A stretch of DNA of 64,000 nt from Acidimicrobiia bacterium. GTDB lineage: Bacteria > Actinomycetota > Acidimicrobiia > Spongiisociales > JAOTWH01. Where the stretch lies: the NCBI GenBank assembly GCA_036446035.1, contig JAZFSG010000078.1, positions 2,674-66,673 of the forward strand, written 5' to 3'. Position 1 is the stretch's first letter; each line of letters begins with the position of its first letter. Below are positions 8,204-32,582 of the stretch, piece by piece. The position numbers and the translations under genes were made by a program. The notes below the pieces were generated by a model, which saw only the letters and a program-made list of their open reading frames with translations, did no database searches and was not told where the DNA came from.

Positions 8204-8665
8204 ATGGAAGAGATGACCCGCGAAGACGCCCTCGCTTTTCTCACCGAGCAGCTCCTCGGTCACCTCGCCGTGATAGATGGCGACGAGCCCTACGTGAGTC
8301 CGATTTCCTATGTCGTCACCGACAACACGCTGTACTTTCGGACCCGACCGGGACGGCGCCTTTCAGTGCTCAAGACGAATCCTCGGATCTGTGTCGAAAC
8401 ATCGCTCGTCGACGATGCCGGGGGCATGTGGTCGTCCGTGTGTGCGTGGGGCAACGCCACGACCGTTGAAGACCCCCAGGTCGGTGCCACTGTGGTTTCC
8501 ATGCTCCTCGAGAAATACGCGGACTCCTCGGAATCAGTCTTGTCCTACGCGAAGGGGCCCAACCTCGGCGTGGAGGCGTCAATAGTTGAGGTGCCGTTGG
8601 ACGAGGTAACCGGCCGGGCGTCGGGCGGCGAGCTCGGAACACACGTCCGTCCGGGGCGTCTCTAA
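8204..8665 (+). CDS. pyridoxamine 5'-phosphate oxidase family (flavin/deazaflavin-binding split barrel) protein
   Basis: 153 aa. N-terminal pattern (ALAFL...GHLAVIDGDEPYVSPISYV...LYFRT) is typical of PNPOx-like proteins. Confidence 0.75.
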   Translation: MEEMTREDALAFLTEQLLGHLAVIDGDEPYVSPISYVVTDNTLYFRTRPGRRLSVLKTNPRICVETSLVDDAGGMWSSVCAWGNATTVEDPQVGATVVSMLLEKYADSSESVLSYAKGPNLGVEASIVEVPLDEVTGRASGGELGTHVRPGRL

Positions 8666-11385
8666 CCTCTGCTGGCGGAAGCGGGAACGTCTTTGCGCGA
8701 TGGGACCCACGGCCCCTCGAATGTGCGCACCCGAACCCTGGCGTCGACGACCCGTATGCCCTGGCCGGGCTCAAGCACCTTCACCGGGTTGAGGTCCATC
8801 TCGGAGATCTCGGGAATCTCGTCAACAAGCTGCGACAGGCGTTGCATAGCTACCTTCAGCTCGGCGATGTCGCCGGCCGGGTTCCCTCGGTAGCCCTCGA
8901 GCAAGCGCGCCGACTTCACTCCAGCGATCATCTCCTCGATGTCACTGTCGGTTACCGGATGGATCCTGAAGGCAACGTCGCCGATGAGCTCGACGAAGAT
9001 GCCCCCAAGGCCGAAGGCAAGGAGCGGTCCGAAGGATGGGTCTTCGGTCATTCCCAGGATCACTTCGTGTCCCCCGACAACGAACTCCTGGACGAGCGCA
9101 CTCGAAGCGTCCTCGACGACGGCGGTGACCCGCTCGAACGCCGCCGCGATCTCGTCTGCGCCAACGATGTCCAACTCAACTCCGCCGATATCCGACTTGT
9201 GCAGCGCCTTGTCCGAGATGACCTTCAGAACGACTGGCCCGTCGATGTCAGAGGCGATCGCGACCGCTTCGGCTGCGGTGGCGGCGACCCCCGACTTAGC
9301 CAAGCCGAGGCCATAGGCGCCGAGGACCGCCTCCACCTCAGCGGGCTCGAGCCATCCGCCGCCGTCCCCCATACGCGCCAGCGCCTCCTCGACCACCTTC
9401 TGCGCTTGCTTCCTCGAGACGTCCTCGAAGTGAGCGATCGTGCCCTCGGGGCGGCGACGCCATTCGCCATATGCCGCGGCGCGGGCCAGGGCCTGGGCAG
9501 CCGGCTCGGGAAACAGGTAGGTCGGCACCTGGACTCCCCCGCCCACCAACTCGGCGGGAGCACCCGATGCGTCCATGAAGACGGCGAGCATCGTCTTGGA
9601 AGAATGCTCGGCTGCCGCACGGATGGCGGCGGCGATCTCGTCGCTGCCTGTTGGTGCCGCCGGTATGTGGATGGCGATCACCGCGTCGAGTTCTTCGGAG
9701 GCGACGAGCTCGTTGAGACAGGCCGCGTACTGGCTGGCTCCGGCTGACGCGATCATGTCGACAGGATTGCGGGTAGATGCCTCAGCAGACAGGTGCCCGC
9801 GCAGCCGTGCCTGGAGCTCTGAGGAGAACTCAACGACCTCAAGGCCTTGCGACTCCAGGGCGTCTGCGGCCAGGATCCCAGGGCCGCCGGCATTGCTGAG
9901 AATGGCGACACGCCGCCCCTCCGGCACGGGCTGGTTGGCCAGGAGGGAGGTCACGTCGAAGAGCTCCTCCAAGGTCGTCGTTCGGATGACACCCGCCTGA
10001 TGGAAGAGCGCGTCGACGGCAACGTCGAGACTTGCCAGCGATCCGGTGTGGCTGGAGGCCGCCCTCGCCCCGGAGGCGGTCCTCCCCGACTTCACCGCAA
10101 CGATGGGCTTGGTACGACCGATACGCCGAGCGATACGGGCGAAGCGGCGCGGGTTGCCGAACGACTCGAGGTAGAGGAGGATGACGTCCGTGCGCGGGTC
10201 GTCCTCCCAATAGAGCAGAACATCGTTACCCGAAATGTCTGCCTTATTGCCCATCGAGATGAAGGTCGAGATACCGATGTTGAGCTGGCGGGCATAGTCG
10301 AGGATGGCGATGCCAAGGGCACCTGATTGCGACGACATGGCAACGTTGCCGGGTGGCGGATAGCGGGGTCCAAACTGTCCATCGAGGCTGATGGCTGGAT
10401 CGGTGTTGAGCACCCCCATGCAGTTGGGACCGACCATGCGCATGCCTGCGGACCTCACTACCTCGAGGAGCTCATCCTCGAGAACCTCTCCCTCGTCGCC
10501 GGTCTCGGAGAAGCCTGCGGTGATCATCACGATGCCCTTGACACCGGCAGCGGCGCATTGCCTGACAGCTTCGGTGGCAACGGCGGCGGGTACCACTATG
10601 AACGCCAGGTCAACGCTCCCCGGAACATCTCCGATACTTGGGTAGGCCTTGACGCTGGCAACAACCTCGGCCGAGGGATTCACGGGATAGATCGGGCCGG
10701 TGAACTCTCCTCCGAGCAGGTTGCGAAACAGCCGGCCGCCGATGGAGGTCTCGTTCCTGCTGGCACCGACCACCGCCACCGAGTGTGGATAGAAGATCGG
10801 CATGATCGAGGCGGCGACGGCCCGCTTCTCTCGCTCCCACTCCGCGGCGACGTGCTCGCCGGACTCAGCCGTCGGCAACTCGACCGTGTAGACGCCGGCC
10901 GAGGCCTCGTCGCGGGTGACCCCGAAGCCGGAGTTGCGGAATACGCGCAGCATGGCGTGATTGTCCGCGAGGACATATGCCTTGAAGGCCACTATGTTCC
11001 GCTGCCTGGCGTAGTCCGCGAGGCGATCGAGCAGAAGAGAGCCGACACCCCGACCCTGATGGGCGTCCTCGACCAGGAAGGCGACTTCGGCGGCGGCGGG
11101 CTCGTCCTCGAGCACGTCGTAACGGCCAATCCCGATGATCGTGCCGTCGACGATGGCAGCGAAGGCCATTCGCTTGTCGTAATCGAGGACCGTGAAGTAC
11201 TCGACTTCCTCGGGCGACAGATCGTCCTTGTCCCTCATGAAGCGCTGGTAGATGCTGCGGGGCCCTGACCTCTTGAGCAGGGCGCGCAGCTCTTCACCAT
11301 CATCGGGGCGCACCGGCCGAACGCGCATGACGCCGCCGTCCTTGAGGACGAGATCGAACTCCCAAGCCTGCGGATAGTCGCTCAT
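8662..11385 (-). CDS. GNAT acetyltransferase fused to ADP-forming acyl-CoA synthetase-like domains (Pat-type protein acetyltransferase)
   Basis: Track ORF trimmed to ATG 11385. N-terminal GNAT (HQGRGVGSLLL), then CoA-binding (VAVVGAS), ligase-CoA and a C-terminal ATP-grasp. Confidence 0.85.
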   Translation of the reverse strand: MSDYPQAWEFDLVLKDGGVMRVRPVRPDDGEELRALLKRSGPRSIYQRFMRDKDDLSPEEVEYFTVLDYDKRMAFAAIVDGTIIGIGRYDVLEDEPAAAEVAFLVEDAHQGRGVGSLLLDRLADYARQRNIVAFKAYVLADNHAMLRVFRNSGFGVTRDEASAGVYTVELPTAESGEHVAAEWEREKRAVAASIMPIFYPHSVAVVGASRNETSIGGRLFRNLLGGEFTGPIYPVNPSAEVVASVKAYPSIGDVPGSVDLAFIVVPAAVATEAVRQCAAAGVKGIVMITAGFSETGDEGEVLEDELLEVVRSAGMRMVGPNCMGVLNTDPAISLDGQFGPRYPPPGNVAMSSQSGALGIAILDYARQLNIGISTFISMGNKADISGNDVLLYWEDDPRTDVILLYLESFGNPRRFARIARRIGRTKPIVAVKSGRTASGARAASSHTGSLASLDVAVDALFHQAGVIRTTTLEELFDVTSLLANQPVPEGRRVAILSNAGGPGILAADALESQGLEVVEFSSELQARLRGHLSAEASTRNPVDMIASAGASQYAACLNELVASEELDAVIAIHIPAAPTGSDEIAAAIRAAAEHSSKTMLAVFMDASGAPAELVGGGVQVPTYLFPEPAAQALARAAAYGEWRRRPEGTIAHFEDVSRKQAQKVVEEALARMGDGGGWLEPAEVEAVLGAYGLGLAKSGVAATAAEAVAIASDIDGPVVLKVISDKALHKSDIGGVELDIVGADEIAAAFERVTAVVEDASSALVQEFVVGGHEVILGMTEDPSFGPLLAFGLGGIFVELIGDVAFRIHPVTDSDIEEMIAGVKSARLLEGYRGNPAGDIAELKVAMQRLSQLVDEIPEISEMDLNPVKVLEPGQGIRVVDARVRVRTFEGPWVPSRKDVPASASRG

Positions 11386-11440
11386 CCCCCGATTGTGCCA
11401 CGAGAACCGGGGTTCCCTACTAGGGGCTAACGTCGCTGTC

Positions 11441-12148
11441 ATGGCAAGGACTTTCACCACAAGTGGGGCACTACTCCTCGGCTTGGTGATGCTGACAACG
11501 GCTTGTGGTGACAGCGCCACCACAACTTCGGTACCACAGACGGCAGCGCCTGTCCCGCAGGGGACAACCGCGACCACACAACCTGTCGCAACGACGACCC
11601 CAATGACCACCGTTCCGGCCACCACTCAACCACCGGCCACCGAGGCCGAGCCCCCCGAGAACGCGGCGCCGGCCTTCGCCATCACCGCGGTGACCTTCGG
11701 TGACGGTGGGTTCGTGCAGATCACCAACACCGGTAACGGCGCCGGCAACCTCGATGGGCACTGGCTATGCCAGTTCCCCGCCTACCTCGAGGTGCCGTCT
11801 ACAGAGCTCGGACCGGGTGAATCTGTTTGGGTCGCTGCCAGCGGGAGCGACCTCCAGTTCGTCGGCTCCGTGGTCGGCGTCGTCGATGCCGAGGGCCGCC
11901 TTGGATCCTTCTCACTGACGACCGGCGAAATGGCCCTGTACGCGAGTCGTGACTTCGGCAGTGCCGCAGCCATCGTCGACTACGTGGAGTGGGGCGCCTC
12001 AGGACACGGCCGCTCCAGCGTTGCCGTCGAGGCCGCCATCTGGCCCGAAGGTGGCTTCGTTGAGATCCCCGACGGAACCATCTCCATCACAGCCGGCAGC
12101 GCCGGAGCGAATGACCCGGCAGCCTGGTCGCCAGATATCGGCGTCTAG
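11441..12148 (+). CDS. lipoprotein with lamin-tail-domain (LTD)-like C-terminal region
   Basis: Track ORF trimmed to ATG 11441. Signal peptide ends ...LTTAC, followed by a Thr/Pro linker. LTD-like pattern (VQITNTGNGAGNLDGHWL). Confidence 0.65.
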   Translation: MARTFTTSGALLLGLVMLTTACGDSATTTSVPQTAAPVPQGTTATTQPVATTTPMTTVPATTQPPATEAEPPENAAPAFAITAVTFGDGGFVQITNTGNGAGNLDGHWLCQFPAYLEVPSTELGPGESVWVAASGSDLQFVGSVVGVVDAEGRLGSFSLTTGEMALYASRDFGSAAAIVDYVEWGASGHGRSSVAVEAAIWPEGGFVEIPDGTISITAGSAGANDPAAWSPDIGV

Positions 12149-15482: not shown

Positions 15483-15941
15483 TTACCGCGTCGCCGGCAA
15501 CCTGTCCTCGGCCAACCGCCAGCCCAGGACACGCGAGGCCGGAGCGGCGACGCCCAGGATCTCGAGCGCGTCGTGGCGCCACTCGTAGATCGCGCTCTGA
15601 CCGAACCGGTGCCCAACGGCGATGGCGGTTTCCCGGGGAAGGCCAGCCACAAGCAGCCCGGGCTCGGGTATCGACCCGTCCGACGCGCTGCCGATTGTCT
15701 CAAGGGTCTCAACGCCAAGAGTTCGCACGACATCGACCAGCGACCGGTGCCGGTCAGCATTGGCAGCAGCATCACTCACCACTCCGCCAGGGTTGTAGGC
15801 GGTCACGATGTGGACGGCCCGGCGGAAAGGAAAGCTCGAACCGACATCTCCTGTCGGCTGCGGATGCAGAACGCGGGTGCCGTCCTCGAAGGAGATCGTG
15901 ACCACGGCGCGGGCGAAACAGTCAACCAGCTCGTTTTCCAC
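15483..15941 (-). CDS. DUF3293-like protein
   Basis: Conserved pattern VHIVTAYNPG ... EPGLLVAGL ... FGQSAIYEW. The start (GTG 15941 or TTG 15968) is uncertain. The long N-terminal extension in the track overlaps the PPOX pseudogene. Confidence 0.55.
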   Translation of the reverse strand: MENELVDCFARAVVTISFEDGTRVLHPQPTGDVGSSFPFRRAVHIVTAYNPGGVVSDAAANADRHRSLVDVVRTLGVETLETIGSASDGSIPEPGLLVAGLPRETAIAVGHRFGQSAIYEWRHDALEILGVAAPASRVLGWRLAEDRLPATR

Positions 15942-15976
15942 GGAAGGGACCCTAAGGGAATCGTTCAAGGGGGGCT

Positions 15977-16377
15977 TCAGCCCCAGTGGCGGAGTCGGGT
16001 CACTGTCACTCGTAGCGGCGTGGAGAACTCGGCGTCGTACGCAGCGAGCGACGAGAACAACCGAGCCATCTCGTCTGTGTACTTGGCGAAGTAAGGCGCG
16101 TTCTCGCTGGGTGGAGGCATCTTCATGTCCACTGCGGCGGGCCTTCGAGAGTGACCATGGTGTCGCCCCTGAAGTCACCCCGAGGGTTGAAGGCGGCGCG
16201 TGGGTTGATCGCAAGATTCGCCATGCGGGACGCGGTGGGGCTCGAGTAGACGACGAGGTCGTCATCTTCGCGGATGAACCAGATCGCCGAGTTCTGTGGC
16301 TGATCCGACGGTGCGACCGTCGTTAGCCAGCCGATGAACTCATGCTCCATGAGTTCGAGAACACGCGACTGCGGCAT
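15977..16377 (-). pseudogene. frameshifted PPOX-class (F420/FMN-dependent) pyridoxamine-phosphate-oxidase family gene
   Basis: The N-terminal 85 aa (track ORF 16123..16380) end at TGA. The C-terminal half (AAVDMKMPPPSENAPYFAKYTDEMARLFSSLAAYDAEFSTPLRVTVTRLRHWG*) continues in another frame down to TGA 15979..15977. The frames join at the GGG run 16139..16141. Confidence 0.7.
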
Positions 16378-16460
16378 CAATGAAGCCTGGGGAGGCCTTT
16401 CGCCTCTGGTGCGGCCTTTGTGGAGCGAACAGGCTCGAAGTCGATGTCAAGGGAGGAAGC

Positions 16461-16736
16461 ATGAAGAAGTGGTTGATTCTCGCCGCGTTCGTGGCTGGAG
16501 CCGTCGGCCTGGCACGCCTGGCGAGCCGTCGGGAGGCCGAAGGCAGCCGTCCGACGATATGGGACAAGCTCGGAGCCCAGATGGAGGAGATGCCTGAGGG
16601 CTTTCCGCCTCGGGTGATGTTCGACAATGTGGCCAAGACCAACGAGACGACACAGAAGATTCTCAACATCCTCGAGGAAAAGGGCGCTGCGGAAGAGCTC
16701 GACCTGACAGTGGCAGGGAAGAGCGGCAATGACTGA
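16461..16736 (+). CDS. small membrane-anchored protein (91 aa)
   Basis: Track ORF trimmed to ATG 16461 (GGGAGGAAGC upstream). One N-terminal TM and an acidic tail. Confidence 0.55.
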   Translation: MKKWLILAAFVAGAVGLARLASRREAEGSRPTIWDKLGAQMEEMPEGFPPRVMFDNVAKTNETTQKILNILEEKGAAEELDLTVAGKSGND

Positions 16737-17151
16737 CCTGCGCCCTTCCGAGACTGCCGCTCCGAAGGATCGTCTCACAGAGAAACAGCGGAGAGAACAA
16801 GTCTGGGAAGACTGGTGGACAAGTGATCGGCTGGACGGATTTGGCTGGGCGGCACTCTTCCTCTGGGGCGCACTTGTGCTCATATCCCAGTTCACCAGTT
16901 TCAAGGATGACTACGACCGGTGGGAAGGCTGGGGGGTCTTCTTTGTCGGAGCCGGCGTGATCGTGCTCGTTGAGGCGGCTGTTCGACTGCGTATGCCCAA
17001 GTACCGCTCCAAGTTCGGGTGGACGCTGTTCTGGGGTACCGCCTTTCTCGCCATCGGATTGGGTGAGTTGGTGAGCCCTATTTGGTACGCCTTGCCCTTG
17101 GTCGCCATCGCTGTCGTCATCTTGAAGGACACGCTCACCCGCCGCGAGTGA
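16729..17151 (+). CDS. integral membrane protein (140 aa, 3-4 TM, Trp-rich)
   Basis: ORF track. An 8-nt overlap with the upstream gene. Hydrophobic segments. Confidence 0.6.
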   Translation: MTDLRPSETAAPKDRLTEKQRREQVWEDWWTSDRLDGFGWAALFLWGALVLISQFTSFKDDYDRWEGWGVFFVGAGVIVLVEAAVRLRMPKYRSKFGWTLFWGTAFLAIGLGELVSPIWYALPLVAIAVVILKDTLTRRE

Positions 17152-17469: not shown

Positions 17470-18204
17470 TCACGGGTTGCGGCGAAAGAGGCCTCTTAGG
17501 GCGCGGAACGGCGCTCCGAGTGCATACATCCCTGACCTGATGGCGGCGTTGTGGCGAAGGTTCTTGGTCTGTGACCATTGGCGCTTGGGGTCAACGCACA
17601 CGACCTCCTGGGAGACCTGTCCGTCGCTTCCGAAGTGAGCTGCGACAGATCGCAGGGTGTACTGCCACATCTTGTCTTCCTTCCGACCGGCGAACAGCGC
17701 GAACGCTGCCTCGTAGATCGGATCACCTGTCCTCATCAGCACCTGTACTTGAGCCTTGGTGGCATCTTCGTCCTCGAAGGCGCTGAACGTGATCCAGCCC
17801 GCGAAAGGATGGCCTTGCGGCGTCATAAAGGTGAACGAGCGCTGGTCTGCGAAAACCACCATCACCCCGGTAGACAGCTTCACCCCACCCTGGGAGGAGT
17901 TGATGACCGCGACGTCACCCGCGTTCAGTTTGCTGAAAGGCGTGTACAGATTGTCTTTTGGCGGCCAGAACGAGGAGTAGTTCTCCTTCCAGGACCCAAT
18001 GACTTCCTCGGGAGTTGCCGATTCGCTGACCTGTACGCGGTACGTCTTCTGCCACATCTTCCCGAAGCCCTGGAGGGCACCTGCCAGCTGCCGGCCCTCC
18101 ACATTGAGATTGAGCGCCTCCGCGGGGAGGCCCGAAACCTCCAGACCCTCTGTCGGCTTGGCCCACCCCTCGTCCGGTTGTGCGTTGTCCTCTTCGTTGC
18201 TCAT
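17470..18204 (-). CDS. conserved hypothetical protein (244 aa), distal gene of the STAS operon
   Basis: ATG 18204 lies 23 nt after the STAS stop, with GGAGG 11 nt upstream. No family confidently recognised. Confidence 0.6.
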   Translation of the reverse strand: MSNEEDNAQPDEGWAKPTEGLEVSGLPAEALNLNVEGRQLAGALQGFGKMWQKTYRVQVSESATPEEVIGSWKENYSSFWPPKDNLYTPFSKLNAGDVAVINSSQGGVKLSTGVMVVFADQRSFTFMTPQGHPFAGWITFSAFEDEDATKAQVQVLMRTGDPIYEAAFALFAGRKEDKMWQYTLRSVAAHFGSDGQVSQEVVCVDPKRQWSQTKNLRHNAAIRSGMYALGAPFRALRGLFRRNP

Positions 18205-18226
18205 CTGGCGCTTGTCCTCCTTGCGG

Positions 18227-18574
18227 TCAACCGGCACTCAGCGCTTCGGCCTCGCTGCCGTAAACGACTATCGCTTCATCGATTCTCGTCAGCTGAAAAA
18301 TCTCCCGGTAGTGGTCTGTGAGTCCGTAGGCGCATAGCCGTTGCTTGTTGCGGTTGGCTCGGATCAACATCGTGACCAGCAAGCCGATCCCAGAGCTGTT
18401 CATGTACTCAAGGCCGGTGAAGTTCAAGATCACTGAAACCACCCCGTCGGCGCTGGCCTCTTCATAGGCCGCAACCAGTGCCTGGTCGGCGGTGGCGTCG
18501 ACCTCTCCGTTGATATCGATGACGGCGGCCGACTCACTCGGTCGCCGCACCGCCAGGATCAGTTTTTCAGTCAT
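18227..18574 (-). CDS. STAS-domain anti-sigma-factor antagonist (RsbV/SpoIIAA-like)
   Basis: 115 aa. Phosphorylatable-Ser motif LEYMNSSGIGLL. GGGAGGG RBS. Confidence 0.9.
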   Translation of the reverse strand: MTEKLILAVRRPSESAAVIDINGEVDATADQALVAAYEEASADGVVSVILNFTGLEYMNSSGIGLLVTMLIRANRNKQRLCAYGLTDHYREIFQLTRIDEAIVVYGSEAEALSAG

Positions 18575-18689
18575 TCATCCCTCCCTTTCTGAGAGCGAGC
18601 TCTCGCGAGCTACCGTCATTGAGCTGCGTTGGGTCGAAGCGTCGTCGCAGTACGGCCCGAAAGCGTCGAGGTTGCCGAGCATCAGCGAA

Positions 18690-21482
18690 CTATCCATGAA
18701 GATGCACCACTAGTTCGACTGTCGTATGGGTCTCGCCTGCGATGGTGCGCACCTCATCGACCATGTTCTCGATGAGTAGAAGACCCCAGCCGCGCGGGCT
18801 CCGCTCCCCGCTGAGACGCTCTTCTAGATCGGGCGATTGGGACTCGAGCACCTCCTCGAGATGGCCGGTATCTGTGATCGAGACGAACAGCCGCCCGGGT
18901 GCGGTCGCCACCAGGAAGTGGACGGGTAGCTCCGGTCGGTTCTTGTTGCCGTGCTCGACCGCGTTGAGCGTCGCTTCGGCAACCGCTGTCTCGAGGCGTT
19001 CTCTTTGCCGGTCGTCGATCAGCGCGCCGACGACGCTACCGACTCGCTGTGAGGCGATCCGATCTGCTCCAGCCTCACTGCTCAGCGTGAACTCGTCCAC
19101 CACCACTCGACCTGGCGGTGGTGCGGGGCCAGTTGCCGCGCTGAGGCGCCGCAAGGCGACCAATGTGACATCGTCCTCGAGGCCGTTGGCGGGCGCGGTG
19201 AACTCTGCCAGTTCCGCCATCAGATCGCCGAGCAAGCCTTGAGTGACGCGTCGATCTCGGATCCACGTCATCAGGCGTGGCTTGCCGAACATCTGCCCAG
19301 CCAGATCGTGAGCCTCGGTGAGACCGTCGCTATAGAGCAGCAGGCTCTCGCCCGGTTGGATCACCACCTCCACCTCTTCGTACTTCATCCCAGGCATCAG
19401 CCCGAGAGGCATTCCGGTTGCCTTGACCTCCCGAATCTCGTCCGACCAGATGAGCGGGAGGTTGTGGCCCGCGTTGGCGTAGGAGAGGACACCGCTCACG
19501 GGATCGACCACCGCGTATAGGCACGTTACGAACATGCTCTCCGGAGTATCCGGCACCAACAGATCGTTGACGCGTTCTAGCACGCGCCCCGGCTCGCGAG
19601 TGCCCGACGCGGTGGCAACGCCGCGCAGCATGCTCCGACAGGTTGCCATCACCATGGCGGCAGGGACCCCCTTGCCGGAGACGTCCGCGACGACAACCGC
19701 CCACCTGCCATCGGGGAGCTCGATGAAGTCGTAAAGGTCTCCGCTGACCTCGCGCGCCGGCTGATAGTGCGCGGCAAGCTCCCAGCCTTCCAGCTGGGGC
19801 AGATCCTTGGGCAGGAGGTCGCGTTGGATGCTCTCGGCCAGCTGCAATTCCTGCTGCAGGCGTTGCCTCTCCGCGGCCTGCTCAGCCTGTTGCTCAACGA
19901 GCTGGGCATAGCGAATGACCGGGGCTGCACTCTCGGCAAGCCGGCGGAGAAGTTGATGGTCAAGGCCCGAGTAGGCCCGATCGCCCAGCCGTGGACCCAG
20001 TTGGAGGACGCCAACCAGCTCCTTGTGGCTGACGAGAGGAACCACGAGGTCGACCCCCTTGGTCACGAGAGCGATCGCCGCAGCATGGCTTTGGGCAGCC
20101 AGGGGAATCGGACTATTCCCGGCATCTAGATAGACATCGGCCAGAGCGTCATGCTCGGCGGAAGCCCCCTCATCCACCAGTTCGAGATAGAGGTCCACCG
20201 CCGAAGGGCTGAGTGTCTCTCCAACCACATCGATGAGATCCCGCTCGAGCTCCGCCACATCAGACTGATCTCTGATCCGCTCGGCGAAGGCATCGACCGT
20301 GCGGTCAGCGTCGTACTTCTGGCGATAGAACCGCCTGTCGACCTGCGATTGCACTCTGGTTCGCAGCGGCTGGAAGAGGCCAACCATGAGCATGCCGGTC
20401 AGAGCCACGCCGAATCCTGGGCCGAGAGTGCTCTCGGCGAGGTTGCCGGCGATGACGGCGGCGACGACGAGCGCCAGGCCGATGACTCCCGTCAAAGTGC
20501 CGTAGACAAGGGCCCTGTTGAGGATCAAGTCCATGTCCCACAACCGGTACCGAGTTACCGACACGACGATCGACACCGGGAAGAGGACGACCGCCAGCGT
20601 AAGAAGGCTCAGCAGGTTGAGATCGTAGATGGCTTGAAGGCGGGGGGTTACCACCACAAGGCCGAGGTCGAAGTTCTGAGAGAGATCCGGGTCGATGATC
20701 CAGATGAGACCAAAGACCGCGACCACAGTGAAGAGCGAGATCACTACCAGACGAGTCTGACTTCTCACGTGTGTGCTCGAAACCCTGAAGTAGCGGTAGA
20801 CCTGCGCTACAACCACCGCCAATGCCAGGCCCAACGTCCACACCACCTGAAGGCTCTCGGGCCACTCGGCGACGTCGAAGACTGCAATGCCCGGAAAGAT
20901 GGCCCACAGAACAACCTCAGCGCTGAAGAGGACCGCGACCACGCGCATCCATTTAGCGGCGAACCGGCCTTCAGGGAACAGGAAGGCGAAGAGAACGATG
21001 GCGACTCCGGCGATGGAACGCCAGAACTCGGGGCCGGCGTCGAACACGCCCAAGGAGTGGACGGCCACCTCCCAGTCAGGCCTGGTCTGAGCAAGGACGC
21101 TGGACGGCGCGAACAACGCTGCCCCTGCGGCGAGCAGGGTTGCCGAACTGAGGGTCGCCACCCAATCGCGAGACTTCCTCAGGAAGAGAAGCGCGCCGGT
21201 GACAAAGAACAAGACAAATCCGGTTACGTGCACAGCGATCTGCCCTGCTTTGAGCACACCGGCGCCGAGGAGCCGCTCCTCGAGTTGTCGCGCCAACTCT
21301 GGCTGAACGGCAAGGGCTCCCTGAGACTCCACAAGTCCGAGATCTCCCCCGAAGAAGGCGTCGAAACTGGCGGCCGCGACGGCGGTTACCAGAGCCGCCA
21401 GTGCAAACCATCCGGCCCTCACCAACCACAGGCTGGGTCCCTCGAGCGTGGTCGCTCGATCAACGACTAGGGAGGTGGTCAT
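18690..21482 (-). CDS. polytopic membrane sensor - GAF-like - PP2C (SpoIIE) phosphatase - RsbW-like HATPase fusion protein
   Basis: 930 aa with about 10 N-terminal TM segments. PP2C motifs (REVSGDLYDF, VADVSGKGVPAA, LYSDGLTE). C-terminal HATPase_c_2-like segment (EATLNAVEHGN...GWGLLLI). ATG overlaps the TGA of the upstream gene. Confidence 0.85.
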   Translation of the reverse strand: MTTSLVVDRATTLEGPSLWLVRAGWFALAALVTAVAAASFDAFFGGDLGLVESQGALAVQPELARQLEERLLGAGVLKAGQIAVHVTGFVLFFVTGALLFLRKSRDWVATLSSATLLAAGAALFAPSSVLAQTRPDWEVAVHSLGVFDAGPEFWRSIAGVAIVLFAFLFPEGRFAAKWMRVVAVLFSAEVVLWAIFPGIAVFDVAEWPESLQVVWTLGLALAVVVAQVYRYFRVSSTHVRSQTRLVVISLFTVVAVFGLIWIIDPDLSQNFDLGLVVVTPRLQAIYDLNLLSLLTLAVVLFPVSIVVSVTRYRLWDMDLILNRALVYGTLTGVIGLALVVAAVIAGNLAESTLGPGFGVALTGMLMVGLFQPLRTRVQSQVDRRFYRQKYDADRTVDAFAERIRDQSDVAELERDLIDVVGETLSPSAVDLYLELVDEGASAEHDALADVYLDAGNSPIPLAAQSHAAAIALVTKGVDLVVPLVSHKELVGVLQLGPRLGDRAYSGLDHQLLRRLAESAAPVIRYAQLVEQQAEQAAERQRLQQELQLAESIQRDLLPKDLPQLEGWELAAHYQPAREVSGDLYDFIELPDGRWAVVVADVSGKGVPAAMVMATCRSMLRGVATASGTREPGRVLERVNDLLVPDTPESMFVTCLYAVVDPVSGVLSYANAGHNLPLIWSDEIREVKATGMPLGLMPGMKYEEVEVVIQPGESLLLYSDGLTEAHDLAGQMFGKPRLMTWIRDRRVTQGLLGDLMAELAEFTAPANGLEDDVTLVALRRLSAATGPAPPPGRVVVDEFTLSSEAGADRIASQRVGSVVGALIDDRQRERLETAVAEATLNAVEHGNKNRPELPVHFLVATAPGRLFVSITDTGHLEEVLESQSPDLEERLSGERSPRGWGLLLIENMVDEVRTIAGETHTTVELVVHLHG

Positions 21483-22939
21483 GGACCTACTCCTTGAGGT
21501 CGGGTGAGGCTCACGAGGCGCGCCATGTCATCTTCATCGAGAGCGAACATCTCAGGGTGGTCCTGTCTGAAACCGTCGGACATGGCATAGTCGCCAAACG
21601 ACACTGCCGAGTCGCCGGCGGCCTCGAATGCCGGTTGTACCGTCGGGAGATCGTGGCACTCGCCGCAGAACGGAGAAAAATGGCGGACAGGGTATGCGTT
21701 GTGGGTGAACGGATCGATCACCGGGGCCTCTTCATCGCCGGTGCCGTGACATTCGAGGCAGCTGCCCTGCGATGCCGATTCGATGCTGTGAGGGACCGGC
21801 GGCGCGATCGAGTCGGCAAGGCCGGTGCTACAGACGCCGAGCAGCAAGGCAAGACCGAGCGCCGGTGCCATGGCTGCGACGCGTGTCCGTCGCTTCGCCA
21901 AGGCCGGGGAAACCACACCGGTAGGCGCAGCAGCGATGTCGCCGGCAGCCTCCAGCGGGATACGAACCCAGAGGACGATGTAGTAAAGAAGGCCCACCAG
22001 GAAGAAAGCGCTCAGAACGAAGAGGATTCGTACGAACAGGACCGTTACTCCGAGATAGCGGGCAACTCCGGCGGCCACTCCGCCGATGAGGCGGCCACGG
22101 CGTGCCCGCCGCAGCTCTGGAGCAACGGGCGTGTCCGCGCTTGTTCCTGGCACGGACACCACTGGGCTGCGAGCTTCCCGGAGACGAGCCCGTTCCGCTG
22201 TCACCAACCAGGCGACCGCCCACATCAGCACGAGGACGCCACCCACGTAGGGACGCGCTGACGCATCGAAACGGAACCGCAACGACGCTATCCCGTAGAC
22301 CACCATCGACAAACCCGTGGTCCATGCCGCGAGGGGCCACCCCCTCACCCGCAACGCAGCGAGGTAGCCGGTGGCCAGCAGCGCCAGACCGAAAGCAGCC
22401 ATTCCCCCCCAGTGGCTTTGGTGGAAGCGCACGTTGTTGGCGGCCTTGTCGAACTCTTCGGAGAACGCGATGAGGGCAGGGAGGGTCAACATCACCATGA
22501 GGAAGAGGAGTCCGCCGGCCGGACTCACCCGGGGTCGAAAGATCTCCTGCCGCGACGGATGCAGCATCGCGATCGTCACTGCCGGAACCAGATAGATCAG
22601 CGTCGTCCACTCCCATCCGGTTGAGGCGGTCACTACGACCGTGAGAATCAAGACGACGGCAACCGCCTGCTGCATGCCTGCGATGTGGCGTTCGGGCGAT
22701 CGCAACTGGACGATCACACCCACCAGCACCATCGCCAACAGCATGCCGAAAGTGATCTCGTGCACACGATGCGAGATGTTGTCGTCGAAATCGACGAACC
22801 ATCCCAGGAACAGAGAGCTGAAAGGACTGAACAGATAGAGGAAGGCCGCGAAGGCCACAGTCAACGACACGAAGGCCGTACGCCGTCGGCCCCCGCTGCC
22901 GCGTCCCGGCGCCTGCGCAGCTATCGGCTGTGGCTCCAT
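21479..22939 (-). CDS. polytopic membrane protein with PspC domain and C-terminal di-CXXCH (putative dihaem c-type) domain
   Basis: 486 aa with about 8 TM. PspC-like RRARRGRLIGGVAAGVARYLGV plus a long TM, then a signal-like TM. CLECH at 21746..21760 and CGECH at 21653..21667. Confidence 0.75.
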   Translation of the reverse strand: MEPQPIAAQAPGRGSGGRRRTAFVSLTVAFAAFLYLFSPFSSLFLGWFVDFDDNISHRVHEITFGMLLAMVLVGVIVQLRSPERHIAGMQQAVAVVLILTVVVTASTGWEWTTLIYLVPAVTIAMLHPSRQEIFRPRVSPAGGLLFLMVMLTLPALIAFSEEFDKAANNVRFHQSHWGGMAAFGLALLATGYLAALRVRGWPLAAWTTGLSMVVYGIASLRFRFDASARPYVGGVLVLMWAVAWLVTAERARLREARSPVVSVPGTSADTPVAPELRRARRGRLIGGVAAGVARYLGVTVLFVRILFVLSAFFLVGLLYYIVLWVRIPLEAAGDIAAAPTGVVSPALAKRRTRVAAMAPALGLALLLGVCSTGLADSIAPPVPHSIESASQGSCLECHGTGDEEAPVIDPFTHNAYPVRHFSPFCGECHDLPTVQPAFEAAGDSAVSFGDYAMSDGFRQDHPEMFALDEDDMARLVSLTRPQGVGP

Positions 22940-22960
22940 GGTTTGGGCGATACTCCCCTG

Positions 22961-23377
22961 CTACTCGACAATGATCGCTATTTCGTCCGTCAGGTCCAGA
23001 GCCGTGTGGCTACCGTCGGCCACCTGCAGGCACAACGTATGTTCACCAGGTTCGAGCTCGAGAAGCGCTGTCTCTTGACCCCCTCCGAAGTGGAGATGTT
23101 CACCATCGGCTCCGACTGTCAGGCGGGGCTGCACACACGGCCGATCGATGATGATGTGGAAGTGCCCACGCCCATCACCCACTCCCTCGCTTGCCGGCTC
23201 GATTATGAACCCCTCGGCCCCCATGACGACCGGGACCGGACTAACGACTACCGCCTCATCGCGGGGCTCCTCGAAGAATACCCTTCCCTCGGCATCGGAT
23301 GCACAGGCCGCAGTCGCCATCGCTAGCAAGACTGCCGCAAAGACGTACCGAGCCGCAGATCGTTTACCGATTCCCAT
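22961..23377 (-). CDS. lipoprotein, DUF4399-like
   Basis: Track ORF trimmed to ATG 23377 (GGGAGG 5 nt upstream). Signal peptide ...ATAAC. GHFHIIID motif. Confidence 0.65.
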   Translation of the reverse strand: MGIGKRSAARYVFAAVLLAMATAACASDAEGRVFFEEPRDEAVVVSPVPVVMGAEGFIIEPASEGVGDGRGHFHIIIDRPCVQPRLTVGADGEHLHFGGGQETALLELEPGEHTLCLQVADGSHTALDLTDEIAIIVE

Positions 23378-23536: not shown

Positions 23537-26410
23537 ATGGCGGGACTGACGATCAATCTGCTGGGCCCCCCTGTGGTCGAGTCCGATGGGATCCCGATCG
23601 AGGTTGACACCCGCAAGGCCGTGGCACTGCTGGCCTACTTAGCTGTCACCGGCAGGGCTGAGACACGCGACAGCCTCTCCGTGCTGTTGTGGCCCGACAA
23701 CGACCACTCACGGGGTCGCGCCGCTCTTCGTCGCACCTTGTCAGTGCTGCGCAAAGCCCTCGATCATCGCTGGCTCGTGATCGAGGGTCAGACTGTGGCG
23801 CTCCCGATTGGCAGCGATATGCGGATCGACGTCCGGCTGTTTGAGGATCGGCTCGCCGCCACCAAGCTGCACCCTCATCCAGCTTCCGCTGTCTGCAACC
23901 AGTGCCTGCAGTTTCTCGAGGAGGCCGTTGCCCAATACCGCGGTGACTTCCTCACCGGCTTCACGCTGCGGGATAGCGCGAACTTCGACGACTGGCAGCT
24001 CGCGCAGGGTGAGCACCACCGAAGAGAATTCACGGGTGCGCTCAGAGACCTGACCGATTCGTACAGGCGTCTCGGAAGATCTGATGACGCCATCGCGGCT
24101 TTGAGCAGATGGCTCGAAGCCGATCCACTCGTGGAGTCGGCTCATCGCTCACTCATGGAGGTCTACGCGTCAGCAGGTGATCGATCGCGCGCTCTAGAGC
24201 AATACCAGAAGTGCATACGGGTCCTCGACCGAGAACTCGGAGTCTCTCCACTAGAGGAGACCGTCGACCTGTACCACGAGTTGAAAGTCGGACGGATCCC
24301 CGTCCGGGCCAAGGCGCAGCCGACCAAAGTGGAGTCACTTGTAGACAGCGAGGCTCGCCCGCCATCTCGTCTCCGAGCTCCCCTCGTTGGCCGAGCGAGC
24401 GATCTCGAAACAGTCTCCGTCGAGCTTGCTAGAGGCAATCGGCTGATCGCCATCGAGGGCGAAGCCGGAATCGGCAAGACTCGCCTCGCAGAGGAGGTCC
24501 TCGCCGCGGCGGCGGCACAGGGAATCACAGTCATCGCGGCGCACTGCCATCAAGGAGAGGAGGATCTCGCGTTCGGAGTCCTCGCCGAGTTGCTAACGAT
24601 CGGTGGCCGTGCCGAGGACGCCCGGACGCGTCTCGCCTCGATTCCCTCCTTTGCCGTTGGCGAGGCGTCATCGCTGGCTCCGTCACTCGGTGACCTCGTC
24701 CCCGCCATGCCACCGCACGTGCCTCTCTCTGGAGCGGCGGCCGATGCTCGGCTGCTTGATGGGGTTGCGGAGGCGTTGCGAGCCCTCTGCGGCGAAGGCG
24801 GAGTTCTCTTCATCGATGACGTCCAATGGGCCGACGCGGCGTCCCTCAAGGTCTTGGGATACATGGTTCGTCGCCTGCCTGAAAGCGGGCCCTCTATCCT
24901 GGTGACGTCACGAACCGAGGCGCTGCGAGCAGACCACCCGCTGCACGAGATGCTGCATACGGCTCGCCGCAATGGAGCATCCGCCTCTCTGTCTCTGGCC
25001 CGACTCGACAGAGATGAGGTCGCCGAGCTGGTTACGGCAGCTTCGCCGCACGCAGCGGCACAACCCGACCTCGACATACTGTTCGAAGAGACAGAGGGAG
25101 TTCCCTTCTTCGTCGTCGAGTATCTGGATGCCTTTCGGCTCGATGGCGAAATCGATAGTGGTCGACTCCCAGTCTCCGTTCGCGACTTGCTCTCGTCGAA
25201 GCTGGCGGGACTAACCGAGATGGGGCGCCAAGTCGCGGCAACGGCTTCTGTGGTCGGACGAGCCTTCGACCTGGATCTGGTCCGGGAGGTAAGCGGGCGA
25301 AGCCCGGAGGAGGTCGTGGAGGCGGTAGAGGAGCTCTGCCAACGCGGAGTCCTAGGAGCGCCCAGCGGGGACTCCTCCTCGTTCGACTTCGCCCACGACA
25401 AGCTCAAGGAAGTCGTCTACGAGGACACGAACCCAGCGCGCCGCCGACTCCTCCATCGCCGAGTCGCCTCTGCTCTGGTGGGTGTCACCCGATCCGGCAC
25501 CGCTGCTCCGTCCGCCGAGGTTGCGCGGCACTACCAACTCGCTGGTGACGACGCAGAGGCTGCCGCTCACTATCTCGAGGCCGGCCGTCGCGCTTTCGCC
25601 ATGCATGCCAACACTCAAGCCAAGGAATATCTGCTAACTGCATTGGCACTTGGTCACACCGAAGAGGGCTCTATTCACAGAGAGATCGGTGACATCGAAT
25701 TGCTCGCAGGCGACTACCAGGCAGCGCTGTCCAGCTACGAGCGTGCCGCCGCCATGAGTAGCCCGGACGCAAGGCCCGATGTCGAGCGTCGGCTGGGTGC
25801 CCTGCATCATCGCACAGGTCAGTTCGACTCCGCTCGCGCCTATTTCCAAACTGCCCGCGACTCGCTTGTTGCTGGGGAGCGAACCGCCGCTGCCTCCATG
25901 ACCTCTGCCGACTGGGCATTGACCGAAATCAAGGTCGGCAACCTAGGCCGTGCCCGCTTTCTTGCGGAGGAGGCGATGGAGTTGGCCCTTCTCAGCGAGG
26001 ACTCCGGCGCCCTGGCCCAGGGACACAACACGCTCGGCATCCTGGCGACGGAAGAAGGCGACTATCCGGGAGCTGCGCACCATCTCGAGCAGGGCCTGGC
26101 GATGGCGGATGAGGTTGGTGGCGGTGCCATCAGGGTGGCTGCTCTGAACAACCTTGCTCGTGCCACTGCACGAATCGGCGATCTCGATCGTGGACGGGCA
26201 TTGGCCGAGGCAGCACTTGAAGAGAGCGTTGCCATCGGCGACCGTCATCGCGAGGCTGCTCTCCACAACAACCTTGCAGACCTACTCCACGCGACAGGCG
26301 ACGTCGACGAATCTATGAAGCATCTCAAGAAGGCACTTCAGGGCTTCGCAGAGATCGAGCTCGGCGCCGATCTGTCGCACCCCGAGATATGGAAGCTGGC
26401 CCAGTGGTGA
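23537..26410 (+). CDS. AfsR/SARP-family regulator (OmpR-type wHTH + BTAD + P-loop NTPase + TPR)
   Basis: 957 aa. N-terminal wHTH/BTAD, Walker A GEAGIGKTRL, TPR-like C-terminal repeats. Confidence 0.85.
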   Translation: MAGLTINLLGPPVVESDGIPIEVDTRKAVALLAYLAVTGRAETRDSLSVLLWPDNDHSRGRAALRRTLSVLRKALDHRWLVIEGQTVALPIGSDMRIDVRLFEDRLAATKLHPHPASAVCNQCLQFLEEAVAQYRGDFLTGFTLRDSANFDDWQLAQGEHHRREFTGALRDLTDSYRRLGRSDDAIAALSRWLEADPLVESAHRSLMEVYASAGDRSRALEQYQKCIRVLDRELGVSPLEETVDLYHELKVGRIPVRAKAQPTKVESLVDSEARPPSRLRAPLVGRASDLETVSVELARGNRLIAIEGEAGIGKTRLAEEVLAAAAAQGITVIAAHCHQGEEDLAFGVLAELLTIGGRAEDARTRLASIPSFAVGEASSLAPSLGDLVPAMPPHVPLSGAAADARLLDGVAEALRALCGEGGVLFIDDVQWADAASLKVLGYMVRRLPESGPSILVTSRTEALRADHPLHEMLHTARRNGASASLSLARLDRDEVAELVTAASPHAAAQPDLDILFEETEGVPFFVVEYLDAFRLDGEIDSGRLPVSVRDLLSSKLAGLTEMGRQVAATASVVGRAFDLDLVREVSGRSPEEVVEAVEELCQRGVLGAPSGDSSSFDFAHDKLKEVVYEDTNPARRRLLHRRVASALVGVTRSGTAAPSAEVARHYQLAGDDAEAAAHYLEAGRRAFAMHANTQAKEYLLTALALGHTEEGSIHREIGDIELLAGDYQAALSSYERAAAMSSPDARPDVERRLGALHHRTGQFDSARAYFQTARDSLVAGERTAAASMTSADWALTEIKVGNLGRARFLAEEAMELALLSEDSGALAQGHNTLGILATEEGDYPGAAHHLEQGLAMADEVGGGAIRVAALNNLARATARIGDLDRGRALAEAALEESVAIGDRHREAALHNNLADLLHATGDVDESMKHLKKALQGFAEIELGADLSHPEIWKLAQW

Positions 26411-26459: not shown

Positions 26460-26506
26460 CGACGATGTCATCCTGTCCTCATGAACGGATCCGAGGAGGC
26501 GAGGAC

Positions 26507-27151
26507 ATGTTGACACAGAGCATCACCCGGTGGAGAGGAGAGACTGATCGAGAGCGATCTGCGCTGCTGCTCGCACTCTTGGTGGGGTTCCCTCTCTTCG
26601 CGACGTTGAACGGCCTGTTTCTCTTCACCCCCGTCGTCGGCATCGTGGGGATGGCGATACTCGTGGCAGTTGGGGTCAATGCTCTGATCCACGTCCGACG
26701 GGCACCTCGGTTGGTGCTGTCGGGATTGGCTGGAGGGGGCATAGCCGGACTTGTCGCTCTAGGGGCGGGCTCTCGCCTCGCGATGCGGGTCGTGTCTATC
26801 ACCGGCGGCAGGCGGGAAGTGAGTGCCGACGGCACGATGTTCCTCCTCATCGCCGGCGCCATGTTGGGAGCGATTATCGGCCTGTCCCTGGCCGGCGTTC
26901 TCCGCCTGTGGCGGGTGCGCGGTTGGGTCGTCGGCACCATCCTGATGGTGTTCTTCGGTTCGTTGTTGCTGGTCGGGTCCGATACGCGAAGCGAGTTGTT
27001 CGATGAGGGGCTGGGCATCTGGTTGAACCTGCCCATGTTCCTCGGCGTCTTCGTCCTGTACGGAGTCCTGGCCGTCCAGTCGATCGGTTGGGTCGATGCC
27101 AGGCTGCCGACTATCGGAATGGCTCGATATCCCATGCCTGAGCGGCCTTGA
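26507..27151 (+). CDS. integral membrane protein (214 aa, about 6 TM)
   Basis: Track ORF trimmed to ATG 26507 (GAGGAGG upstream). Gly/Ala/Leu-rich TM segments. Confidence 0.6.
   Translation: MLTQSITRWRGETDRERSALLLALLVGFPLFATLNGLFLFTPVVGIVGMAILVAVGVNALIHVRRAPRLVLSGLAGGGIAGLVALGAGSRLAMRVVSITGGRREVSADGTMFLLIAGAMLGAIIGLSLAGVLRLWRVRGWVVGTILMVFFGSLLLVGSDTRSELFDEGLGIWLNLPMFLGVFVLYGVLAVQSIGWVDARLPTIGMARYPMPERP

Positions 27152-29483: not shown

Positions 29484-32581
<3,098 letters not shown>

Positions 32582-32582
<1 letters not shown>

Follow-up and report, generated by a model that had tools for sequence, protein, structure and literature searches.

A 64,000-nucleotide stretch of DNA from an Acidimicrobiia bacterium (contig JAZFSG010000078.1; hereafter the window, G+C ~64%) carries five co-directional minus-strand genes at positions 17470-23377, and we give about an even chance to the reading that they encode a partner-switching-type serine phospho-relay ending in a START-fold protein, not in a sigma factor. 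In the order of the genes, the products are a DUF4399 protein, a 486-aa polytopic membrane protein with two CXXCH motifs (the di-CXXCH protein), a 930-aa membrane phosphatase-kinase, a 115-aa STAS protein and a 244-aa protein, which we call X250. All five open reading frames (ORFs) were located as described in the initial annotation, which had been made from the sequence alone, and its domain calls were upheld by Pfam and NCBIfam. Because X250 is co-conserved with the switch genes, occurs as natural fusions with STAS, and belongs to a module that has no sigma factor, it is, as judged by sequence comparison, very probably the effector of the switch, and it probably acts as a STAS-X250 pair. The 244-aa protein had been put forward as a candidate for the output, and it is now the best candidate, given its linkage to the switch genes in 63 of 64 loci and its STAS fusions in many lineages.

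The comparison set consisted of about 100 related loci, and the window domains were scored against the ORFs of 84 loci; 80 X250 genome loci (L005-L084) are included, and counts were restricted to loci with enough flank. Among the 64 X250 loci having at least 3 kb upstream, PP2C and HATPase were each present in 63, and two or more STAS genes were present in 61. In 63 of 64 informative loci, X250 came last, downstream of the PP2C-kinase and STAS set. Homologues of the N-terminal membrane domain of the 930-aa protein, which has about ten transmembrane (TM) segments and is called TM10 below, occur in 49 of 59 loci, usually as one to five tandem separate genes of ~400 aa (median E 1e-19). The PspC segment of the di-CXXCH protein was found in 2 of 59 X250 loci and DUF4399 in 1 of 59. 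Judging from this gene content, the conserved module is TM10, the GAF-like-PP2C-kinase protein, two STAS paralogues (S1 and S2) and X250, with a flavoenzyme and a BTAD regulator as frequent additions; the PspC/di-CXXCH protein does not belong to the conserved core. The five genes of the window are co-conserved only among close relatives (L005, L091 and L092/L093), and three of the five are kept in the wider family. Clustering of the 80 loci yielded only lineage-specific extra genes, namely cupredoxin, small SRPBCC proteins, a disulfide reductase, and MsrB with photolyase.

The absence of a sigma factor from the module, claimed in the initial annotation, was also supported. A jackhmmer search with three probes (an ECF, or extracytoplasmic function, sigma factor, a fragment of SigA, and an approximation to RpoD region 2-4 that served only as a probe) found no sigma-70-family ORF in the whole 64-kb window, and Pfam annotation of the likely genes at 7-32 kb of the window showed no sigma or anti-sigma gene. 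Such ORFs are few in the relatives: a sigma-70-family ORF lay within 10 kb in 3 of the 80 X250 loci, each time on the opposite strand.

X250 (17470..18204; this and all other operon features are on the minus strand) was described initially as a protein of no recognised family, and indeed no Pfam, NCBIfam or PDB-profile match above threshold was found. Its AlphaFold2 model (predicted local distance difference test, pLDDT, 76; predicted template modelling score 0.73) gave 224 PDB matches in Foldseek at E <= 1e-3, and the best 50 of the 224 were all SRPBCC-type with probability 1.0; the matches at ~4e-6 include Ara h 8, MSMEG_0129, Ms6760, PYL receptors and the ZhuI cyclase. According to this model, X250 has the helix-grip (SRPBCC/START/Bet v 1) fold, a beta-sheet wrapped round a long C-terminal helix. 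The match spans a core of ~150 residues with conserved extensions of ~45 residues on either side, and the beta-sheet region has the conserved loop motifs STG and PQGH. The family may be called distantly DUF1990-like, as weak matches to DUF1990 (PF09348) were found in 17 of 39 X250 relatives (best 7.7e-5) and precomputed PF09348 matches exist on tandem X250-X250 proteins. It is a large family, with 4482 homologues, 1372 clusters at 50% identity and more than 579 matches in species-representative genomes, and identity between Actinomycetota and Chloroflexota members is ~55%. In L034 (2595-4013), L038 (9947-11419) and P0151, X250 is fused via about five TM helices to a C-terminal, extracytoplasmic type-1-copper-like cupredoxin (H...C...H...M), and these fusions place X250 at the membrane.

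For X250, the decisive result is its natural fusion to STAS. STAS is fused N-terminally to X250 in 51 of the best 150 representative X250 clusters; the fused STAS is of the S2 type in 146 of 149, and the fusion partner is STAS, never PP2C. At the acceptor position of these fusions, Ser is found in 61 and Gly in 67 of 149 (~45% Gly), and such a Gly would fit a constitutive STAS-X250 pairing after loss of the kinase. A CrtI-family flavin adenine dinucleotide (FAD) oxidoreductase lies immediately downstream of X250 in 43 of 67 loci, and in four of four distinct loci a STAS-X250 gene and, directly after it, the flavoenzyme gene stand as a two-gene unit that has neither PP2C nor kinase within 9 kb. 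Taken together, these arrangements suggest that the S2-type STAS and X250 are a functional pair with the flavoenzyme as the usual partner of X250, and that the kinase-phosphatase, S1 and TM10 would be a regulatory layer added over this pair.

Several further genes were noted in the related loci. Eight of the 51 STAS-X250 fusions also have a class-I pyridine-nucleotide disulfide reductase upstream. An oxidoreductase of this class (LpdA/MerA/RclA-like) is fused before STAS-X250 in P0185 and P0207 (~880-900 aa) and is encoded beside the cluster in L027 (5108-6562) and four other loci, as a second flavoenzyme partner of X250. In Dehalococcoidia-type loci, heliorhodopsin genes (L095 7297-8073, plus strand; L097 12072-12842, minus strand) stand at most two genes from the STAS-X250 and flavoenzyme unit, and in L095 MsrA and DegV genes separate and flank the two. 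Heliorhodopsin is not a general neighbour, being found in two of the four distinct fusion loci and in none of L096, L098, the 80 PP2C-type loci and the window. In the Rubrobacter loci L020, L026, L030 and L035, MsrB and DNA photolyase genes lie upstream and are co-directional with the TM10 and phosphatase-kinase genes (L026 3019-3435 and 3517-4974), and in L096 a photolyase-like 182-aa gene follows the flavoenzyme. These photolyase and Msr neighbours may possibly reflect a light or photo-oxidative theme.

The 930-aa protein (18690-21482), for which an exact look-up gave no record, joins both enzymes of the switch on one chain. Its PP2C/SpoIIE phosphatase domain (residues 590-779, 19146..19715) matched Pfam SpoIIE at 9.8e-54, and its RsbW/SpoIIAB-type HATPase serine kinase domain (residues 820-925, 18708..19025) matched HATPase_c_2 at 2.5e-18. 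The PP2C metal-binding motifs SGDxYD, DVSGKG, NAGH, SDG and DDxT, and the kinase motifs ExxxNAxEHG (N-box), DxG and GWGL, are kept across 63 family members. When the C-terminal 400 aa were searched against PDB sequences, the best match was Rv1364c (3KE6, 1.8e-16), aligned over residues 30-395 and covering both domains; SpoIIAB and RsbW were also matched at ~2e-5 to 5e-5, and the RsbW/SpoIIAB-like nature first assigned to this C-terminus is borne out by the profile and PDB matches alike. The N-terminal part begins with the TM10 sensor domain (residues 1-370, 20373..21482; ~10 hydrophobic segments), a family without a Pfam model: 30 members gave no consistent match in Pfam or NCBIfam, and TM10 weakly matches the membrane region of PrsK. 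A linker and GAF-like region follows (residues ~411-560, 19803..20252); its GAF_2 match (8e-4) is below the Pfam cut-off, so that GAF-like is the right wording, and the region is kept in related loci, with weak GAF, GAF_2 and GAF_3 matches in relatives. No PAS match was found in Pfam for the N-terminus. TM10, rather than the di-CXXCH protein, is the candidate for the general input of the module.

The STAS protein (18227..18574) matched STAS at 2e-11 and the anti-sigma-factor antagonist model TIGR00377 with a score of 55.6 against a cut-off of 53.45. The NSSG motif reported initially was confirmed and contains Ser60, the predicted phospho-acceptor (codon 18395-18397), whose column is kept in S1 and S2. 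The protein is of the S2 type, with a mean identity of 53% to S2 versus 40% to S1 and hidden Markov model scores of 167.6 versus 122.6 bits. The place that S1 occupies in most relatives is in the window an intergenic gap of 115 nt (18575..18689), which is real as annotated; S1 is degenerate in L001 and absent from the window and L005. No terminator-like site was found in the gap, whose 3' end carries the ribosome-binding site (RBS) for STAS. A second STAS hidden in the gap was rejected since the gap is far too short and only the RBS is recognisable in it, no similarity search for S1 remnants having been made. Compared with its relatives, the window holds a derived version of the module, which has TM10 joined to the enzyme and has lost S1, and no CrtI-family flavoenzyme is found in the 64 kb.

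The five genes are real and constrained: their ratios of nonsynonymous to synonymous substitution rates (dN/dS) indicate purifying selection on all of them. Measured against L005, a near-twin of the window on a contig from a metagenome-assembled genome (MAG) of an uncultured Acidimicrobiia (97% identity over the X250 protein match), dN/dS ranged over 0.075-0.24, with the minimum at X250 (0.075) and values of 0.11 for the STAS gene and 0.24 for the DUF4399 gene. RBS were seen upstream of the STAS, X250 and DUF4399 genes; the one before X250 is AAGGAGG, and the X250 start follows the STAS stop at a spacing of 22 nt. The ATGA overlap at 21479-21482, between the stop of the di-CXXCH gene and the ATG of the 930-aa gene, is present in the sequence as first described, and by this stop/start overlap the two genes are probably translationally coupled. 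A promoter and terminator scan gave no signal beyond chance.

Building on the enzyme identities, the STAS serine, the co-conservation and the fusions, all of which are read from sequence, we propose the following scheme. The kinase domain would phosphorylate Ser60 of STAS and the PP2C domain would remove the phosphate, with the membrane domain TM10 setting the balance of the two activities. Unphosphorylated STAS would form a complex with X250, a state that would be hard-wired in the natural STAS-X250 fusions, and the complex would switch the activity of X250 on the cytoplasmic side of the membrane. The expected ligand of X250 is hydrophobic, and in most relatives X250 would work with the CrtI-family FAD oxidoreductase. 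In the Acidimicrobiia clade, the di-CXXCH membrane protein and the DUF4399 lipoprotein would feed the membrane sensor. The signal is probably the extracytoplasmic redox, haem or metal state, because both of these clade-specific accessories are extracytoplasmic.

Several observations weigh against this scheme. Since S1 and the flavoenzyme, both present in most relatives, are missing here, the local system is a reduced version. The X250 of the window itself had no match to DUF1990 (PF09348). On the input side, the accessory proteins are found in only a handful of genomes, and no Pfam cytochrome family matched the di-CXXCH protein above threshold, the best being Cytochrome_C7 (0.0033, 17.6 bits versus 24.8). 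In a mirror-tree analysis over 66 loci, which yields partial correlations and is not a significance test, the highest value was that of X250 with PP2C (partial r 0.35 +/- 0.07, after equalising alignment lengths), and X250 showed no specific covariation with S2 (0.04). The mirror-tree thereby leaves room for a PYL-like contact between X250 and PP2C, or for an S2-X250 complex as the true substrate of the phosphatase. As a means of deciding the contact of X250 it was set aside: it hints at PP2C, gives no signal for S2 or HATPase, and does not settle the matter.

The alternative that survives best, although we consider it unlikely, is the classical wiring, in which the RsbW-like kinase domain sequesters X250 and unphosphorylated STAS frees it by competing for the kinase domain. 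The gene order of kinase, STAS and target mirrors the textbook operons rsbV-rsbW-sigB and spoIIAA-AB-sigF, X250 is last in nearly all informative loci, the kinase domain is RsbW/SpoIIAB-like, and both STAS paralogues covary with HATPase (partial r 0.22-0.25). A pure kinase competitor, however, is not expected to be fused to its target in loci without a linked kinase, and such STAS-X250 fusions are common; the partial correlation of X250 with HATPase was -0.03.

It is quite improbable, in our view, that X250 acts on the input side as a ligand-gated START receptor that docks on PP2C and controls it, like plant PYR/PYL/RCAR with clade-A PP2Cs, the flavoenzyme making or destroying the ligand. The Foldseek matches include PYL1, PYL2 and PYL10, some of them complexed with PP2Cs, 63 of 64 loci have PP2C along with X250, this pair gives the mirror-tree maximum, and X250 has conserved loop motifs in its beta-sheet region. 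The fold match, however, is generic to the SRPBCC superfamily (TM-score ~0.4-0.6, identity 10-18%), the mirror-tree values are no test of significance, STAS-X250 and flavoenzyme units occur without PP2C within 9 kb, and no PP2C fusion of X250 is seen. An extended form, to which we give just as little weight, would have X250 and an S2-type STAS dock together on PP2C as a prokaryotic counterpart of PYL-PP2C with a hydrophobic ligand made or removed by the flavoenzyme, and the Dehalococcoidia unit of STAS-X250 and flavoenzyme would then be a downstream partner of heliorhodopsin when the cell responds to light or to photo-oxidative stress.

The target could also be a sigma factor whose gene lies in another part of the genome, by analogy with SigF and the mycobacterial Rv1364c-type proteins, with X250 only a co-transcribed enzyme, and this we regard as very unlikely. 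The closest solved relative, Rv1364c, belongs to the SigF network (PMC7693655). Partner-switching components are, as is generally known, often scattered over the genome in Actinomycetota, and a distant di-CXXCH/PP2C pair adjoins an ECF sigma gene (see below). However, the sigma-70-family ORFs are missing from the 64 kb and are nowhere co-directional in the 80 loci, and a remote sigma factor accounts neither for the linkage of X250 in 63 of 64 loci nor for the STAS-X250 fusions.

Least probable is that the divergent BTAD-AAA-TPR regulator is the output or phosphorylation target of the switch, with X250 in its regulon: it lies within 10 kb in 29 of the 50 related loci with enough upstream flank and all close relatives show it divergent from the operon, and AfsR-type regulators are generally known to be under Ser/Thr phosphorylation in Streptomyces, but 21 of the 50 loci and all STAS-X250 fusion loci lack it, RsbW-type kinases are not known to phosphorylate SARPs (Streptomyces antibiotic regulatory proteins), and its role is more probably no more than transcriptional control of the operon. 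The classical wiring, the remote sigma factor and the BTAD output are all less well supported than a relay that ends in a STAS-X250 pair.

The input proposed in the initial annotation was a PspC-cytochrome protein, and this part of the claim stood only for a narrow clade. The protein in question (486 aa, 21479..22939) consists of an 8-helix domain, a PspC-like hairpin, a TM segment and a di-CXXCH tail. In an alignment of 19 homologues, the first CXXCH motif (CLECH, residues 394-398, 21746..21760) has an invariant C394 with C397 and H398 at least 90% conserved, and the second (CGECH, residues 425-429, 21653..21667) has an invariant C428 with C425 and H429 at least 90% conserved. The tail has two further conserved histidines, and H384 is at least 90% conserved; in the N-terminal domain the invariant residues are H173, H176, W177 and F224-S227, with H57, H60 and E61 at least 90% conserved. 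Since an acidic tail follows KRRTR and a TM segment, the di-CXXCH tail is predicted to be extracytoplasmic, and hydropathy and charge analysis also placed the conserved His, Glu and Asp residues on the outward side of the membrane. The conserved CXXCH motifs, the extra histidines and the outward His cluster support a putative cofactor site. The 8-helix N-terminal domain was modelled at pLDDT >90, with low confidence for the PspC segment. No significant match to a PDB fold was found for the N-terminal domain (best E 0.12), so that a known cytochrome b or transporter fold finds no support.

The PspC part of the proposal fared less well. The segment (residues 275-329, 21953..22117) is a clear Pfam PspC match (2.7e-15, 56.3 bits versus a cut-off of 25), and its score against the PspC equivalog TIGR02978 is far below the cut-off (32.9 versus 104). 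Among the aligned homologues and precomputed Pfam matches it is confined to the window clade, P0125 and P0127, and is elsewhere replaced or absent; P0147, a weak outlier outside the alignment, also has a Pfam PspC match. No psp genes were found near the operon among the Pfam-annotated ORFs. As the segment is mostly missing in homologues, the PspC label says little about function, and the hairpin appears to be an incidental, non-conserved linker insertion.

The coupling to the phosphatase gene is what remains of the proposed input. Although the family is tiny, with only 27 homologues in 5.8 billion proteins (among them P0121, a 100%-identical copy from an Acidimicrobiia MAG), in all seven distinct contexts with a membrane-PP2C gene downstream (the window, L005, L001, L085, L091, the single locus L092/L093, and L094 at 28% identity) that gene comes immediately after the di-CXXCH gene. 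The di-CXXCH gene overlaps its start in six of the seven and is 3 nt short in L005. The near-invariance of the CXXCH motifs and this adjacency make a lineage-specific extracytoplasmic haem or metal input plausible, even though the PspC segment lacks conservation within the family, only 2 of the 59 X250 loci have the protein, and the cytochrome models stay below threshold. The DUF4399 protein (22961..23377, 138 aa from the ATG) is a probable lipoprotein or secreted protein, with a full-length match to Pfam DUF4399 (4.6e-21, 75.4 bits versus a cut-off of 28) and, at its N-terminus, a hydrophobic segment that runs up to AAC, after which the mature part is acidic. Its ATG at 23377 is preceded by the RBS AGGGAGG, and the mechanical ORF reaches 23404. 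A DUF4399 gene also precedes the di-CXXCH gene in L005, L085, L091 and L092/L093, and the two proteins together would be a narrow, Acidimicrobiia-specific input accessory.

Distant di-CXXCH homologues (28-33% identity) are found downstream of an ECF sigma gene in L094 (7038-11596) and L090 (8629-10903); in L094 a 203-aa gene lies between the sigma gene and the homologue, and the next gene encodes a TM-SpoIIE protein that lacks the kinase domain. These contexts indicate that the pair of cytochrome-like protein and PP2C is older than its link to X250. Separate cupredoxin genes were observed in the clusters of L003 and L057. The idea that the module always includes an extracytoplasmic redox protein was rejected, as cupredoxin or di-CXXCH is found in only ~7 related loci. 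Cupredoxin in four other loci nevertheless hints, from gene content, that extracytoplasmic redox or metal proteins may be recurrent optional accessories.

Upstream of the operon and divergent from it, the window encodes the BTAD-AAA_16-TPR regulator of the AfsR/SARP-LAL type (23537..26410, plus strand; BTAD 4.4e-24, AAA_16 1.6e-19, TPR_12 9.9e-20), in which Pfam did not detect an N-terminal winged-helix domain. The same divergent arrangement is seen in L002, L003, L005, L085, L091 and L092. Just downstream of the regulator gene, a 228-aa protein (26465..27151, plus strand) without a Pfam or NCBIfam match is homologous to the product of the operon-opening gene of L091, L092 and L093 (phmmer 1.9e-34 versus L092 7844-8494), and the gene appears to have moved in the window to its present position. 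On the other side of the operon, where most relatives encode the flavoenzyme downstream of X250, the window has a DUF3293 protein (15483-16265, minus strand) and two small plus-strand ORFs (16380-17151), one of which has a weak LiaF-TM-like match (0.0016). Other neighbours are a 987-aa protein (8662-11625, minus strand) with GNAT, CoA-binding, succinyl-CoA-ligase-like and ATP-grasp domains, the architecture of a Pat-type protein lysine acetyltransferase; a soluble GAF-HisKA_3-HATPase histidine kinase (7101-8189, plus strand) of the type usually paired with NarL-family regulators; and a tetrapyrrole-methylase-like domain fused to a MazG nucleotide pyrophosphohydrolase (31161-32582, minus strand), directly upstream of enolase (29845-31182).

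Among known systems, Rv1364c of M. tuberculosis (3KE6) has the PP2C and the RsbW-type kinase fused in the same order, and in both cases the STAS substrate is encoded in cis. Rv1364c differs in its soluble PAS sensor, its fused C-terminal STAS and its tie to SigF, whereas the 930-aa system has a 10-TM and GAF-like sensor, a separate STAS, no linked sigma factor and a co-conserved START-fold protein. The RsbU/RsbV/RsbW-SigB and SpoIIE/SpoIIAA/SpoIIAB-SigF switches of B. subtilis share the PPM phosphatase, the HATPase_c_2 kinase and a STAS protein with a conserved serine. Unlike them, the present system has no sigma factor, carries phosphatase and kinase on one polypeptide and has X250 as a fourth component, and most relatives of the window system have two distinct STAS paralogues.

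Partner switches with a non-sigma output are already known, including Vibrio fischeri SypE/SypA, Pseudomonas HsbR/HsbA, Bordetella BtrU/V/W and Rhodobacter RbaV/W/Y (PMC8256260, PMC10120452, PMC6482189, PMC3999984), and a further one is described in a 2026 Anabaena preprint; what is new here is the START-fold class of output. The resemblance is that the output is not a kinase-bound sigma factor, that SypE has kinase and PP2C on one protein, and that in several of them the STAS protein itself contacts the effector. They differ in having receiver-domain sensors and in belonging to other phyla, in contrast to TM10 and the GAF-like region here, and none of them is described with a START-fold or DUF1990-like partner, such STAS-effector fusions, or a linked CrtI-family flavoenzyme.

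Plant PYR/PYL/RCAR-PP2C also ties a START-fold protein genetically to a PP2C, which is a resemblance only: there is no detectable sequence similarity, and X250 has the ~45-aa extensions and occurs without a nearby PP2C. DUF1990 includes the chloroplast protein OEP23, the one studied member that was found, which has been reported to form an ion channel in the outer envelope of plastids (PMC4331141), and the searched papers that mention DUF1990 report no link to STAS or PP2C. With PspC proteins and c7/c3-type cytochromes, the di-CXXCH protein shares a PspC segment above the Pfam cut-off and two CXXCH motifs plus two further conserved histidines; it differs in that no psp genes are nearby, the cytochrome models are below threshold, and its 8-helix domain has no fold relative. 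No description of this module was found in the literature searched, and STAS, anti-sigma factors and PP2C all go unmentioned in a 2026 review of bacterial START proteins.

Partner switching is the textbook mode of sigma-factor control, and each of the few known non-sigma cases has revealed a new type of output. The module analysed here is present in at least 579 species-level genomes of Actinomycetota and Chloroflexota, and for hundreds of proteins it corrects the labels "anti-anti-sigma factor" and "hypothetical protein". It also gives an entry to three families without a Pfam or NCBIfam model, X250, TM10 and the His-rich di-CXXCH membrane protein, and the link to heliorhodopsin and photo-oxidative-stress genes is directly testable. 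The START-fold end-point points to a serine phospho-switch that acts directly and post-translationally on a membrane- or lipid-facing activity, and not to gene regulation.

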